A stretch of DNA of 43,204 nucleotides, from the UHGV virus genome UHGV-0007115, one strand, 5' to 3'. Positions within the stretch are counted from its first letter, which is position 1. Each line of letters starts with the position of its first letter. Positions 33,001 through 39,000 of this stretch are shown in pieces. The position numbers were made by a program. This stretch comes from a virus.

Positions 33001-36000
33001 TGCTGAAGGAAAGAAATATTGAAACGGTTCTTGAATTTAGAGCTGAAAATCGATCAGCGAAAACTGCACAGTGATCAAACAGGCCGCTTTCGCGGCCTTG
33101 TTTTTAACGAATGCCACCGCCACCCGGGCGGGAATCCGCAGAACGCCCACCGCAGCGGGAGCCGTCAGCAGCAGTGTCGCTGTCGTGCTGACAACGACCG
33201 GCAAAGGCCTGAGTTGAAGCTACCAGAGACAACAAAACGAACAGTGCAGCAAATGCTTTTTTCATTGTGAAATTTCCATCTATAAGCCACCTCAATGTGG
33301 CGTCAATGAGTGTAGCACTGACTTTTGTTTCGTCCATAAAAAACTACTATGCAGGCTTTTTGGATTTGTACGAATAATCCCACGGATAAACATTTCTACT
33401 AAGTGGAGCTGTATTAGTTCGTTCATGAAATAATTTTGTGAAATTCAATACGGAATCCATCCAAACTTTTGCGTTAGCTTTGGTGTGTGCGGGCGGGTCC
33501 CAATAAGCTAGTAAGGCTGCATCTCTTATTTCATTGACTGCATATATGAGATATGCGTTACTGGTTGGTTTTGGCCTGTAATTTCCTTGTTCATCAATCA
33601 ATCCATATGACCACTCATCCCAACACTGTTCAGTACATGAGTATGAATATGATGCATATTCACCAATATTGACATGAACCTTTCTGAGATGGAAGCCTAA
33701 TACTTCGTCTGGTCTTTCAAAAAGAGTATCTTTTCCCAGATCAGGATGATGACCATGACGCCAGTGTTGTTTAAAAGCATCTTTTAGCGAAATCAGAAAG
33801 TCATCAGTTTTAAACTCACCAGTAGGTATAACCTTCCCGCTATACTCACTCAAAAACATCGAATTCCTCTTCCTTCATATGCGTTTCTAATGAGTTAAGC
33901 TGGCGGAAAGATATCTCTTTTGATTCTGCAGATGAGAGCTTTTTTATCCGCTTGATATTCTTTGTGATAGGAATAGACATTGTATGCACATCAGCGGATG
34001 CTCTTGGCTTTGTGCTGATAAAAATATGGCGCAATGCCGCATTTTCACTATTGAACGAGCCAATAGCTGATTTACGTGCTACAACCTTACCAGTAAAAAT
34101 ACGACTCTTGCTACGCTTTGCATGAGTTCCGCTTCTTACCGGACCTCTCATCACGAATCCAAGTTTTGTCATCTTTAATCTCCGGTAAGTTACAGGTATA
34201 AAATAAAAACAGGTTTACCTTTAAGGTAATAGTACGCTATTCACCCCCGGTCTGCAATCTGTACAGAATTATTTAAAGGCACATCCCTGTGCCGCCGCCC
34301 GTCAGAAGAATCCTGCTTTGTCGTTGATGTACTCCGCGTGGGTCTGGATATCACGCAGGCATTTGCTCACACCGACGATGTAGCAGAACATGGTGGTCAG
34401 CTCCGCCGCCGCGCCCGATACATCGTGCCCGTCTTCCTGTAACTGGTTCAGCAGATTCATCAGCAGTGAGTTCTCCGTCAGGCCGAGAACACCAGACGGA
34501 GAATGAATCAGGCTACGGTAGCCGGGCTTCAGCGGGGCGCTGTAGGTTTTGTTCTCTATCTTCATTGCCTGCATCACTGCTGATGCTGTGGCGTTGGCTA
34601 CCTGGTCGGCAACCATCTTTATGCGTTCTTCCTGCGGGAGCGAGTTTTTAATGTAACTTCCGGTGCGGCGGATCTGAGGAAGAACCTCACCTGTAACCCA
34701 TTCAAGAAATCTGAATGCTCTCGTTCCCTCAGTCATTGCCTCTTTGCAACGCAGAATAAGGATGTAGAGACCTGATTCTGAAACGATGGATAGTTCTTGT
34801 ATTCCACCAGGGGTCTGTATTGAATACAGCCCCTTTTTGTTCCAGCCTTTTTTATCAAGTTTTCTCGCTTGTGTAACATCAATATTCAAAGCATTGCACA
34901 CATCTTTGGTGACAAACCAAGGTTCTCCGTCAATCATGAACATACGGATCTGGCAGGATGACTCAAAGGAAAAGATGGAAGGTTTGGTATTCATGGCGAT
35001 CACCTTTGTAGTTAGGTTAATCACCACCGCTGAGACCAATCAGATGGTGGTGAACTGTGCAGAGTTGGTCTTACCGGCTACAAAGGAACCCGGCGCACCT
35101 TTCGGTGCCCCCACACAGCCCACCATAGAATAGGTGCGCTTTACACATAAAAAAACCGCTTATGCGGCATATGTGCCTCTGTAGTAATCCGGGAGACCAA
35201 TCCCGGCACTGGATTTTGCCAGTGCCCGATTACTATGGCACAAGAGGAGTGCGATGTAAATTTACCGCAAAGGTAATGATAAACGCGGAGAAATATTAAA
35301 ATCAACCGCATTTGGTTGATTGCGTTTAACGCTTGATCACCTGAAAGCAAGATATTACCTTTAAGGTAATGTTATTGTGAGGAAAAGCAATGGAAGTTTT
35401 CTGGATAGTTGTTGGTGTTGTTACGGTGATTATTTACGTTATCAACCAGAACAGGACTAAGGTCTCTGATCGCACAGTCGTTAATCATCGCAAAACGATA
35501 AAGACCGAAGATGGAGAAATAACGATTAATCGTACACAGGTGATAGACCACACCTCCACTCAGTTTCAAAAAACTGGAGGTAATGCGCCGGATATTTCTG
35601 TACATCCTGCTTATGATATATCGGTAATCCAGACATATTATAAACAGCAGGAGTCAGCAAAAGAGAGGGCGCTGATTCAGCCAAAGCCATTTACAGCAGA
35701 GCTTCCACCTGGAGTGTCAACGCGTCCGGCATATCATGACAGATTCCCAGGTGATGACATATCGTCTCAGTTACCTAAAAAAGCTCCTCAGGTAGTATCT
35801 GAGCCAGCAAGAATACCTTCTGTATCGCCATCACAAGAAGAATCAGCTAACAGAGTTTCAAGTGGTAGTAAGCAGTGTTTGCGATGCAGAATAAACCTTC
35901 CATATGAAAAATTCAGGAAATCGTCAAAAAATCCAGATGGATTGACTAAGTGGTGTGCAAGGTGTCTCGATGGCCCAAAGAATACACGCCATATGAAGTG

Positions 36001-39000
36001 GTGCCCAATTTGTAATGTCCGCAGAAAACGCACCAGCTTTTACCCTAATAATCAAAATGCGGACGGCTTAATGGCATGGTGCAAAACGTGCTGGGACGAG
36101 CACAAAGCGAAACGATAGGCCGCTCTTGCGGCCTTTTCTTTATGTGGTTTGTTTTCGTAATTGTTCGGCACAATAGTCGAGATGTGTTTGCAGATCCTGC
36201 ATAGACATCTGTGAGCTGGTGACGTAGTTAATCAGTGCAGTCAGTTCGGCAAGTGGGCCATCGACATTAAATCCATCCTTATCGAGATCCCGGAGTAATT
36301 TCATCAAGTGCGATCCCTCCACTAGTGATCTGACGCCTCCCGGCGTGTGAATCCTTTCGGTAAATCCGTCTTCCAGTGGATAGTGATACTGCTGCATCTT
36401 ATCTTCTCCATGCAATAACTGTATATTTATACAGTATCAAATAATTTGTTTGCTATCCAGCACGTTTTGCAAATTACCTGAAAGGTAATATCTATTCGTA
36501 TTCACAGTCTTTCTATCCATATGTGGTTTTTCAGGTAATAGAATAACCAGATATGCGGCGCAACGGGTGCTGCGACTATCTGGAGATTTAACATGACGGT
36601 CTCAACCGAAGTTGACCACAACGAATACACCGGTAACGGCGCTACGACATCATTTCCGTATACCTTCCGTATTTTCAAAAAATCCGACTTGGTTGTTCAG
36701 GTGTCTGACCTGAACGGGAGCGTAACAGAATTGGTTCTGGATACCGGTTATACGGTAACTGGGGCGGGCACTTATAGTGGCGGTTCTGTTGTTCTTCCGT
36801 CGCCGCTTGCTGCTGGATGGCGAATTACGATAGATCGTGTGCTTGATGTAGTGCAGGAGACAGACCTTCGCAATCAGGGAAAGTTTTTCCCCGAAGTGCA
36901 TGAAGATGCCTTTGACTACCTGACGATGCTGATCCAGCAATGTTTTGGGTGGTTCAGACGTGCATTGATGAAACCATCTTTGCTTGCAAAATATTACGAT
37001 GCAAAGCAAAACAGAATTTCTAACCTTGCAGATCCATCACTTGAGCAGGACGCTGTAAATAATCGCTCAATGCGTAATTATGTCGATGCTGCAATCGCCG
37101 GGGTTGTTGGTGGTTTTGGTTGGTTTATTCAGTATGGTTCTGGAGCAGTATACCGAACGTTCCAGGATAAGATGAGAGACACCGTTAGTGTTCGCGATTT
37201 TGGGGCAAAAGGCGATGGTATAACAGATGATACATCTGCATTGATCCTGGCTGCAGAATATGCACGAGAATCATCCAGAACATTACGAGCGGAAGGTAAT
37301 TTTATTATTACGGAGACATTAAATCTTCGTAATGTCAGCCTCGAAATGACCAATGCTGTTTTTACCATATCCCACTCAGGAATAGGGGTATTGCTTGGCG
37401 GGAATGCATCAAACCCTAACAACCCAAGACAAAACTTCGGAACGATTATCAGAAATTCTGGTATTTCATCTGAAACGACACCGGATATTCGTATTATCGG
37501 GGCAAAAGGGCAGCATATTAACATTGAGCGTTGCGACTACTTACAGTTATATGCAAATTATAATGCTTCGGTGGCATCGACGGATTATTCAATAGCATAC
37601 TCAACCTTTAACCTGAAAAAGGTCGATACAATTCATTTTCTTGGAGTTGAGAAAGGATGGATAAATGAAAACTATTTTTATCTGAATCGTACGAATAATA
37701 TCATTTTCGCTGATAATCCATATCATCATAACCACAATAAGTTTTATGGTGGAACTATGGAGGGGGCAGGTAAAATTGATATTCAAAGAGGTGATAACAA
37801 TTACTTCTACGGGTTTCGTTTTGAACGATATCCATCATCCATAACTAACCAACAGTTGATAATTAACTTTGGTGAATATACGTGGAATAACTCAATTGAG
37901 GCTTCATGGTTAAGTTCTCCTTACTATACAAATGAACCATACAATCCATCACCTTACACTTATGTAGAGGTAACTGATAATGGCAAGGGGAATGCAGTAT
38001 TTCATGTTCAGGAAAATATATCCGATGAAGTAACATTGTTTTCTTTAAATGCTAACACCCCATTTATATCCAGTGCCAACAATGGAGAAGTTGGTGTATT
38101 AGCATATCAAACAGATGTAGATGGTTTATATAATATCCGTCACCTGGTTTCTTCTAAGTTTGCTTTTATGCGGAATTTTGGGTTGTTATGGGAATCTGGA
38201 GATGTACCAGTAAGAAATGGTGATATGTTTACATTCTCAGCAGATACGGCATCGTTTCGCATTTACCTGTATGCATTAGATGGAGATGGGAATGTCATAA
38301 CTTCACAAACAGAAGCAATAACTTCTTCTATGCAATGGGATTCATCTAACCATAGATATGCTACTGTTGCTAACATTTCTTCCATTAAGATCAGGATTAA
38401 TAATGAAGGGGTTCCAGTTAGTGCAATTCGTTTAGCTGTGTATTCTGGTGGTAATGTAGCGAATACTGCATTTTCATGGCTATGCTTAACTGGTAGATAT
38501 TACAAAAATAGCACATCCTTGCCAAGGAAAAGAAAAGATAACTTCACCTTAAAACAAGGAAAAGCAATTACTTATTATAGTGATACTGATATTAGTATGG
38601 CTAACATTGGTTCAGGAATTACCTGTTATAAAACCGATTTATCTGAAATCAAAATTAATCTTGTAAGGGGCAGGTATGTAGTGAAATCAATTTCAGGCAG
38701 TGAAATATATGTATACCAAGGAACAGCCACTTATTACCCTCCATTCAGTGATGTCAAATTGGTATATACGGATGGGGTTGAAAATAAATTATTAGATGTG
38801 CAAAACATCTCTTCAGGAAAGATTACTCTTGCAGATACAGTACCATCAGCTATATCTGCAGGTGATTTTGTAGATGTTATTGTTACAAAGACGAAATCTA
38901 TTTTATGAAGTGTTTATTTATCCTTATGTTAAAGGAGCGATAATGGATATAACGCCTTTCCTTCATGCGTTTTGTGCTGTGGCTGCTCAGGTACTGATTG

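Follow-up and report, generated by a model that had tools for sequence, protein, structure and literature searches.

A candidate exclusion-type membrane protein with tandem zinc fingers in an epsilon15-like prophage of Escherichia coli

What does a small, optional gene for a membrane-anchored zinc-finger protein contribute to the temperate phages that carry it? The question is raised by the virus genome UHGV-0007115, a stretch of 43,204 nucleotides (the whole of which is called the window here), in which an open reading frame (ORF) of this kind is located in an accessory island at 35390-36118. The window is an epsilon15/phiV10-like (Uetakevirus) prophage of E. coli plus host flank. The gene is real, conserved and mobile; it is linked to an operator in epsilon15-like phages and is a member of cI or mnt operons elsewhere. 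Its product is predicted to cross the membrane once, N-out/C-in, and to carry two HNH-associated Cys4 fingers on a flexible leash. It is rated here as an exclusion-type membrane protein, accessory to the phage, whose zinc-finger architecture is novel. The preferred function is an exclusion/defence-type accessory protein that would bind nucleic acid at the cytoplasmic face of the membrane, a reading that is adopted tentatively and with distinctly less than even confidence.

Protein architecture and family

The ORF lies exactly where an earlier reading of the DNA (the sequence-only reading) had placed an accessory gene, is conserved, and is under purifying selection; the gene is therefore real. 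The protein matches the hidden Markov model (HMM) of PHROG 6762 over its full length (E 1.1e-142; residues 1-242 against profile positions 1-242 of 242). PHROG 6762 is the protein's own family, which is uncharacterised and without an assigned function. The best phage match of the window is TL-2011b (94% across the region, megablast), where the homologue at 34513-35241 carries no coding sequence annotation. Relative to the TL-2011b allele, the synonymous divergence (dS) of the ORF is 0.13, and the ratio of non-synonymous to synonymous divergence (dN/dS) is 0.34 for the whole ORF, 0.09 for the zinc modules and 0.61 for the linker, the fastest-evolving part. An N-terminally longer ORF, hinted at by a 1089-bp misc_feature in TL-2011b, was rejected because of in-frame stops just upstream and because every aligned homologue keeps M1.

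Homologues (33) were found across the Enterobacterales, with the main E. coli cluster at 91% identity and others, at 36-63%, in Superficieibacter, Enterobacter, Citrobacter, Salmonella, Serratia, Providencia, Pectobacterium and Buttiauxella. Members with 21-40% identity keep the architecture; their loci range from 39% to 60% G+C and include the Yersinia phages YeP4-6 and the Aeromonas phage phiARM81mr, whose protein p22 is of like architecture at about 29-31% identity. The whole architecture is common to about 50 clusters at 50% identity. Statements on conservation refer to two alignments, one of 30 close homologues and one of 24 distant homologues.

The protein consists of four parts: an N-terminal transmembrane (TM) helix, a juxtamembrane beta-hairpin, a disordered linker rich in Ser, Pro, Gln and Ala, and two homologous Cys4 zinc modules (coordinates in Table 1). 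The single N-terminal TM helix described earlier was recovered by hydropathy and by AlphaFold2. Residues 3-18 are the sole hydrophobic segment (Kyte-Doolittle 19-residue maximum 2.2 at residue 1, elsewhere ≤1.3; summed, uncorrected Hessa-scale free energy about -0.6 kcal/mol over 17 residues), and the AlphaFold2 helix spans residues 3-21 with a predicted local confidence (pLDDT) of about 90. On the N side of the helix there is just Met-Glu; residues 19-40 hold six Lys/Arg and two Asp/Glu. According to the positive-inside rule, the positively charged flank of a TM segment stays in the cytoplasm. Since the positive charges are found only on the C-terminal side of the helix, the protein is predicted to be a bitopic inner-membrane protein of N-out/C-in topology with cytoplasmic zinc modules. 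The four CxxC pairs suit this compartment, because zinc binding by CxxC requires a reducing environment. Hydropathy and charge analysis leaves about two residues in the periplasm, so transmembrane signalling, one of the two roles suggested by the sequence-only reading, is unlikely. A secreted or periplasmic cysteine-rich protein was rejected, as there is no positively charged n-region, the positive charges follow the helix, and four CxxC pairs are typical of cytoplasmic zinc sites.

The juxtamembrane hairpin, a feature absent from the earlier list, comprises strands 29-39 and 42-52 in the AlphaFold2 model (pLDDT about 69). The Ser/Pro-rich linker that had been described was found as such: it contains 14 Ser, 13 Pro, nine Gln and nine Ala among 104 residues, varies in length (about 40-100 residues) and in sequence among the homologues, and reaches a pLDDT of only around 50 in the model.

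The two 42-residue modules align without gaps in the pattern C-x2-C ... D-G-L-x-x-W-C-x2-C with a score 9.3 standard deviations above that of shuffled sequences, in agreement with the duplication noted earlier. Neither the close nor the distant homologues show any change in the eight Cys, the two Trp-Cys pairs or the second Asp-Gly-Leu; in the first Asp-Gly-Leu only Gly184 is invariant in both sets, and Asp183 nearly so. Residues 156-242, modelled from the family alignment, reach a mean pLDDT of 89. Each module consists there of a zinc knuckle, short strands and a helix beginning with the second CxxC, and the fold matches of this C-terminal-domain model are RING, FYVE and HNH-type fingers and also the anti-sigma-G factor CsfB. 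The duplicated modules are thus confirmed as zinc-type Cys4 units; judged from the model, they look more treble-clef-like than classical zinc ribbons do. The full-length model gave nothing below E 1 with Foldseek against the PDB, because its linker is disordered; the C-terminal domain modelled alone gave the matches above. A PDB sequence search with the finger domain returned only a non-significant RING match (E 0.75).

Relatives of the modules were found at three levels. Among predicted viral structures, 42 matched the C-terminal-domain model at E≤1e-3, most of them annotated as HNH endonuclease, restriction endonuclease of the beta-beta-alpha-Me type, recombination endonuclease VII, 'Stc1 domain' or Zn-finger protein. 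Module 2 matches the finger part of the endonuclease VII, HNH endonuclease, DNA primase and Lar-like families of PHROG (E 1e-10 to 3e-3, about 45 residues each). The match to Lar-like restriction alleviation (PHROG 5558; residues 201-241 against profile positions 7-47 of 130, E 1.7e-9) reflects the shared zinc finger alone. The match to Pfam Stc1 (PF12898) covers residues 161-193 only and, with 21.2 bits (E 4.3e-4), remains below the gathering threshold of 24.8; the Stc1-type tandem finger pattern with eight conserved Cys is present. A profile search of 1.8 billion representatives yielded 1732 proteins with the module at E≤1e-3, many with 4-10 tandem copies. Those sampled pass the Stc1 threshold and carry SF2 (ResIII/DEAD) or SF1 (AAA_11/12) helicase domains, winged helix-turn-helix domains or HEAT repeats; a multi-repeat relative (P0066) scores 60.9 bits for Stc1. 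Because of these fold, PHROG and profile-search relatives, the modules are assigned to a widespread finger type that accompanies nucleic-acid enzymes.

The zinc domain holds 20 Lys/Arg and six Asp/Glu, a net charge of +14 over 84 residues, and several of the basic residues are invariant. As the fingers are strongly basic and related to modules of nucleic-acid enzymes, the simplest assumption is that they bind nucleic acid, and probably DNA. A catalytic HNH nuclease was rejected. Pfam gave no match to an HNH or endonuclease VII catalytic domain (PF01844, PF02945 and relatives) even at E≤10, and the PHROG endonuclease VII and HNH matches are confined to about 45 finger residues. The catalytic His/Asn of a beta-beta-alpha-Me site is not conserved in either alignment. 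The columns that are invariant throughout the family are only Cys, Gly, Trp, Lys/Arg and Asp-Gly-Leu; H201, the only near-conserved His, is lost in distant members.

Cassette, regulation and genomic context

The ORF is part of a swappable cargo cassette, which consists of a left hairpin, a regulatory region, the ORF and an intrinsic terminator. Its borders were derived by aligning the interval from ant to the gp19-like gene among the window, TL-2011b, phiV10 and EC.W1-9. In phiV10 the cassette is replaced by about 30 unrelated bases, and phiV10 and most other Uetakeviruses match the flanks only (megablast). In EC.W1-9 the slot is occupied by another cargo of two genes (139 and 168 amino acids, without a Pfam match; L009 2839-3754), bordered by a weaker, shorter counterpart of the left hairpin and by a near-identical right terminator. 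An operator-like site, TTTACC-N5-GGTAGT, lies upstream of the EC.W1-9 cargo. The accessory island of the sequence-only reading is confirmed by this comparison, and the gene's own terminator was found as a 7-bp GC-rich stem with a T-run (36117-36134) directly after the stop codon. Of 5426 complete E. coli genomes, 129 have the gene, in each case on the chromosome, and 97.6% are without it. That it is not a structural or lysis gene also stands, given its optional occurrence, its absence from phiV10, and its own terminator and regulatory region. A spanin, holin or antiholin was likewise rejected, as a complete lysis cassette lies elsewhere (39438-41262) and the gene is optional.

Table 1. Features of the zinc-finger locus and of the surrounding prophage in the window.
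Feature	Position	Strand	Remarks
Zinc-finger ORF	35390..36118	+	Complete, ATG start, 242 amino acids plus stop; member of PHROG 6762
Shine-Dalgarno GAGGA	35379..35383	+	6 nt before ATG
N-terminal TM anchor (predicted)	35396..35452	+	Hydrophobic core residues 3-18, predicted helix 3-21; hydropathy, flanking charges, AlphaFold2
Juxtamembrane beta-hairpin	35462..35560	+	Residues 25-57, T-I-K-T-x-x-G-E turn; conserved in close and distant homologues
Disordered S/P/Q/A-rich linker	35561..35863	+	Residues 58-158; variable among homologues
Zinc module 1	35864..35989	+	Residues 159-200; C163, C166, C189, C192
Zinc module 2	35990..36115	+	Residues 201-242; C205, C208, C231, C234
Swappable cargo cassette, ~850 bp	~35286..36137		Borders approximate to a few bases; intergenic alignments, megablast coverage
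Left-border hairpin AATCAACC-N6-GGTTGATT	35300..35321	-	Terminator-like on the minus strand
Candidate -35 hexamer TTGATC	35333..35338	+	Invariant in 53/53 E. coli-type loci
Candidate -10 hexamer TACCTT	35356..35361	+	T1, A2, T6 present; inside operator; inferred
17-bp perfect palindrome ATTACCTTTAAGGTAAT	35354..35370		Best operator copy (ATTACC-N5-GGTAAT), just upstream of the ribosome-binding site
Intrinsic terminator AGGCCGC-TCTT-GCGGCCT then TTTCTTTATG	36117..36144	+	Directly after stop; right cassette border
Bro-N/Ant antirepressor	34302..35039	-	Left neighbour of the zinc-finger ORF
90-aa gene	36140..36415	-	Right neighbour, convergent with the zinc-finger ORF; precedes tailspike
Tailspike	36593..38908	+	
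Lysis cassette	39438-41262		Two holins, GH19 endolysin, DUF2514
cI-like repressor gene	6621..7205	-	28 kb from the zinc-finger gene

The palindrome in front of the gene is a member of a set that is dispersed over the prophage. A search for ATTACC-N5-GGTAAT with ≤3 mismatches gave 16 matches on the two strands (11 loci), against 0.06 expected; a half-site search with ≤2 mismatches gave 15 matches, of which 14 are taken as real. Copies 1-7 are located at 135-151, 6486-6502, 6548-6564, 7260-7276, 7645-7661, 9608-9624 and 9670-9686, and copies 8-14 at 13551-13567, 13569-13585, 16763-16779, 34214-34230, 35261-35277, 35354-35370 and 36473-36489. They precede most transcription units, including the terminase, a toxin-antitoxin pair, ant and the tailspike region, and at two promoters they form pairs 62 bp apart. 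Around the cI-like gene two copies lie downstream and one upstream, in OL and OR positions. Good sigma-70 promoters end exactly at several of the operator copies (TTGACA-17-AATTAT at OL, TTGATT-17-TTTAAT at 9640-9671, and TTGCAG-17-TACTAT at 34231-34259 on the minus strand). Because of these positions around cI and at promoters the palindrome is taken to be a repressor operator, and the pattern looks like direct, genome-wide control of individual cassettes by the repressor.

The gene had also been credited with a promoter of its own. A consensus promoter scan found none on the plus strand of the cassette, yet a weak candidate, TTGATC-17-TACCTT, is supported by comparison with relatives. Its geometry recurs in four other lineages, with the -10 always within the operator variant of the respective phage: Serratia (TTGAAC-17-TACCTT), Providencia (TTGAAT-17-TAACCT), Pectobacterium (TTGACA-16-TACCTT) and the locus L070 (TTGATC-17-TACCTT). 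Operator and promoter geometry are thus kept in five epsilon15-like lineages, including that of the window. The 58 nt in front of the ATG are identical in 51 of 53 E. coli-type loci; each of the other two has a single change, which in one case falls in the operator. With this arrangement of promoter and operator, the gene is predicted to be repressed by the prophage repressor and to be expressed early in infection or upon induction. Activation by CI of the cassette promoter was rejected, since an operator centred no more than 28 bp before the ATG must overlap the -10/+1 region.

Gene context differs among the relatives. In epsilon15-like prophages of Serratia, Providencia and Pectobacterium the gene occupies the same island, between the genes of internal-virion (ejection) proteins and the tailspike, in either orientation and beside KilA-N/ANT, Bro-N, hicAB or an 83-aa gp19-like gene; toxin-antitoxin modules are among its neighbours. 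Elsewhere it accompanies a repressor. At L015 it starts 11 nt after an mnt-type gene, which is itself divergent from arc-ant, and adjoins ejection-protein genes, the same order as mnt-orf59a-sieA of P22 (a P22-immI-like layout). At L074, L075, L082 and L093 it is co-directional with a helix-turn-helix (HTH) repressor gene and follows it by 15-18 nt; three of these repressors have a Peptidase_S24 domain, and that of L082 has the HTH only. At L090 and L092 it is convergent with, and abuts, a cI-type repressor gene. The deposited annotation of phiARM81mr reads Cro in one direction and, divergently, CI repressor followed by the homologue. Two further settings are an insert beside a tape-measure gene, to which the gene runs in the opposite direction, and a small non-phage island in Buttiauxella. 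The copies co-transcribed with cI or mnt would therefore be made in lysogens, whereas the window copy lies outside the cI operon and has its own operator-bearing promoter.

The slots that these distant members occupy are known from exclusion genes. In lambda, the exclusion genes rexAB take the slot downstream of cI; in P22, sieA takes the slot downstream of mnt (PMC10883804). At L093 the next gene (6654-7307), which overlaps the zinc-finger gene, encodes a signal-peptide-bearing staphylococcal-nuclease (SNase) plus Excalibur-domain protein, a possible periplasmic, DNA-degrading partner in exclusion.

The prophage lies entirely inside the window, with the integrase at the left end (193-1443) and the host genes yfgI and yfgH past the right end (41459-42532). 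The chromosome of E. coli E-1246 (NZ_CP025573.1) has a 100% identical copy of the zinc-finger gene, beside yfgI/yfgH. In the E-1246 prophage an island of ~12 kb with ISEcp1-blaCTX-M-15, IS26, aac(3)-IIe and pemIK interrupts the antirepressor gene (L010 6738-19605). The 90-aa protein to the right of the zinc-finger gene is homologous to the C-terminal domain of Ant, and both match PHROG 450; in Providencia a homologue of the 90-aa gene lies directly upstream of the zinc-finger gene and is co-directional with it. The same island of the window holds, at 33347-34172 on the minus strand, a pair of genes for a 107-aa and then a 169-aa protein, with a promoter of its own that ends at the operator copy 34214-34230. 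The 169-aa protein is annotated by NCBI as a YafO-family type II toxin; its match to Pfam YafO_toxin is below threshold. The ant leader contains, at 35043-35238 on the minus strand, Rfam matches above the gathering score to C4 antisense RNA (35043-35130) and isrK (35149-35225), and a sub-threshold match to the c4 a1/b1 target at 35186-35238; the 223-nt leader folds with z = -4.9. Upstream of ant there is thus antisense control of the P1 type as well as the repressor operator at 35261-35277.

Function of the protein and competing explanations

In the proposed mechanism about two N-terminal residues would be periplasmic, and the hairpin, the flexible linker of about 100 residues and the two fingers would lie in the cytoplasm. 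The fingers, as non-catalytic relatives of the zinc modules on phage HNH/endonuclease VII nucleases, primases and helicases, would bind nucleic acid, and probably DNA, on the cytoplasmic side of the membrane. Foreign DNA, or a protein entering alongside it, may there be caught or blocked on emerging from the membrane. The gene is an optional cargo found in the immunity regions of temperate phages and would serve as a factor in competition between phages. The epsilon15-like copy would be made from its own repressor-controlled promoter when the repressor is scarce, early in infection or on induction; in other phages the protein would be made together with the repressor. As T4 imm and sp illustrate, exclusion is also useful early in lytic infection. 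Exclusion could reconcile the two regulatory regimes, because it is the one role of use both to lysogens and in early lytic infection.

SieA, Imm and Sie2009 are known examples of exclusion proteins in the membrane; to our knowledge none of these three has a cytoplasmic zinc-finger module. In Rex of lambda a DNA-related component is paired with a membrane component, and distant members of the present family lie, like RexA/RexB, directly downstream of cI in the same operon. Rex differs in consisting of two proteins instead of one chain; no homology was detected between them and the present protein, and the window copy is outside the cI operon and under a repressor operator. SieA of P22 is likewise an inner-membrane protein encoded by an optional gene, and the homologue at L015 is placed as sieA/orf59a, between immI and the ejection-protein genes. 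SieA has three predicted TM segments (PMC10883804) and no zinc fingers, in contrast to the single hydrophobic segment of the present protein, of which almost nothing is periplasmic. Phi29 p16.7, itself a membrane protein, is described as bringing displaced viral strands to the membrane (PMC4974454); it shares the N-terminal anchor and the cytoplasmic nucleic-acid-binding part predicted here, but binds DNA by another fold and is part of a lytic phage's replication programme, whereas the present gene is dispensable cargo linked to immunity genes. The Stc1-like/HNH-associated Cys4 modules (PF12898; Hpy99I, PacI and T4 endonuclease VII-type) have the same tandem C-x2-C...C-x2-C pattern, the same predicted fold and local sequence similarity. 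The proteins that bear them differ from the present one, in which no nuclease, primase or helicase domain is attached and no catalytic His/Asn is conserved; compared with these module-bearing proteins, the membrane anchor is unique to the PHROG 6762 family. The resemblance to SieA and Rex is thus only one of genomic position and membrane location, and that to p16.7 only one of layout.

The exclusion role put forward in the sequence-only reading therefore has circumstantial support, from the distant members in the lambda rexAB and P22 sieA slots, and several observations weigh against it. The -10 inside a perfect operator predicts that the window gene is silent in a lysogen, the opposite of what the cI- and mnt-cotranscribed relatives suggest; such silence fits a prophage-protection role poorly, and the two are reconciled only if exclusion is useful in both regimes. 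It is this conflict between repressor-repressed and repressor-co-transcribed copies that holds the confidence in an exclusion or defence protein well below even. Fingers of the RING, FYVE and CsfB-like fold often bind proteins rather than DNA, and the positive charge could also serve the binding of anionic lipids. The TM sequence is not conserved in distant members, and the helix is therefore probably only an anchor. PADLOC-DB 2.0 gave no defence-model match (best TniQ, E 0.27, not significant), and an NCBIfam search gave no meaningful matches. BLASTP found no alignment with SieA at E≤100, so a SieA homologue was rejected; the 287-aa neighbour at L015 is not SieA either. SieA is proposed to block a periplasmic conduit (PMC10883804), and a block of that kind is unlikely for a protein with only two periplasmic residues.

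Sequestration at the membrane is a serious rival, if on balance an unlikely one. The fingers would hold a cytoplasmic protein (a repressor, antirepressor, sigma or transcription factor, or a host defence protein) in an anti-sigma-like manner and so modulate the lysis-lysogeny switch or host physiology. Genes of the switch are always neighbours (ant, KilA-N or Bro-N in epsilon15-like phages, mnt-arc-ant at L015, cI elsewhere), and the protein-binding RING, FYVE and CsfB are among the fold neighbours; on the other hand, the nearest relatives in sequence and fold are accessory modules of nucleic-acid enzymes, and no partner gene co-occurs consistently across the contexts examined. The window protein even has the spelling of the ZAS motif, H201-x3-C205-x2-C208, but H201 is absent in distant homologues and the predicted fold is beta-rich (beta-hairpins with short helices) instead of a helical anti-sigma domain; a ZAS anti-sigma factor as such was rejected. 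It is improbable that the protein anchors the phage's own genome or replication complex, as an early protein that recruits phage DNA in the manner of p16.7. The predicted layout and the early or induced expression predicted by the repressor-controlled promoter would suit such a role; the gene is dispensable and patchy, being absent from phiV10 and epsilon15-type genomes and from 97.6% of the E. coli genomes, occurs also in unrelated phage types and in a non-phage island, and in many relatives shares a transcript with cI or mnt, which places its expression in a prophage that does not replicate.

Two further explanations are considered still less probable. Rex-like abortive infection by a single chain, in which foreign DNA clusters the protein and the TM helices perturb the membrane until the infection stops, would account for the slot downstream of cI (by general knowledge the slot of lambda rexA/rexB), for the union of a putative DNA-binding module and a membrane helix in one protein, and for the high conservation of the TM and juxtamembrane sequence among close relatives. 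The variability of the TM sequence in the wider family argues against it, one short helix is poorly suited to form a pore, and there was no match in PADLOC. At about the same low level stands a host-takeover factor confined to the lytic cycle, such as a division inhibitor, an FtsH decoy or a membrane-acting anti-defence protein. The operator over the -10 in the window and in four related lineages would give it a timing like that of lambda kil and cIII, and the bitopic N-out anchor, the P/Q-rich linker and the globular cytoplasmic domain resemble the layout of ZipA as generally known; the cI- and mnt-co-transcribed relatives would express it in lysogens constitutively, and a function that is toxic or confined to lytic growth is unlikely to be expressed in this way. 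Replication anchoring and lytic-only takeover thus fit the regulation in the window, but not the co-transcription with cI or the dispensability. We infer nucleic-acid binding and an exclusion or defence role as the reading that is tentatively retained.

Significance of the family

The family is widespread, from 129 complete E. coli genomes through many Enterobacterales to Aeromonas and Yersinia phages. It is consistently found in immunity regions, yet it is without annotation and absent from the catalogues of defence systems. It is possible, though rather doubtful, that it represents a distinct class of exclusion or defence protein: one helix-tethered chain with a long leash and catalytically dead, nuclease-derived tandem fingers that would seize incoming DNA or pilot proteins at the cytoplasmic mouth of the entry path, present in temperate phages of Enterobacterales and Aeromonas and likely beyond, and wired into immunity via a cI/mnt operon or a repressor operator.

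The operator wiring of the epsilon15-like cargo cassettes shows how newly acquired accessory genes are brought under immunity control. Given its consistent position beside immunity genes, the protein is a good candidate for a new factor in the exclusion of phages or in defence. Should superinfecting phages indeed be excluded or aborted by it, the protein would be a mechanistically distinct, single-gene addition to the defence repertoire of prophages, and would offer a simple model for the interception of DNA entry from the cytoplasmic side.

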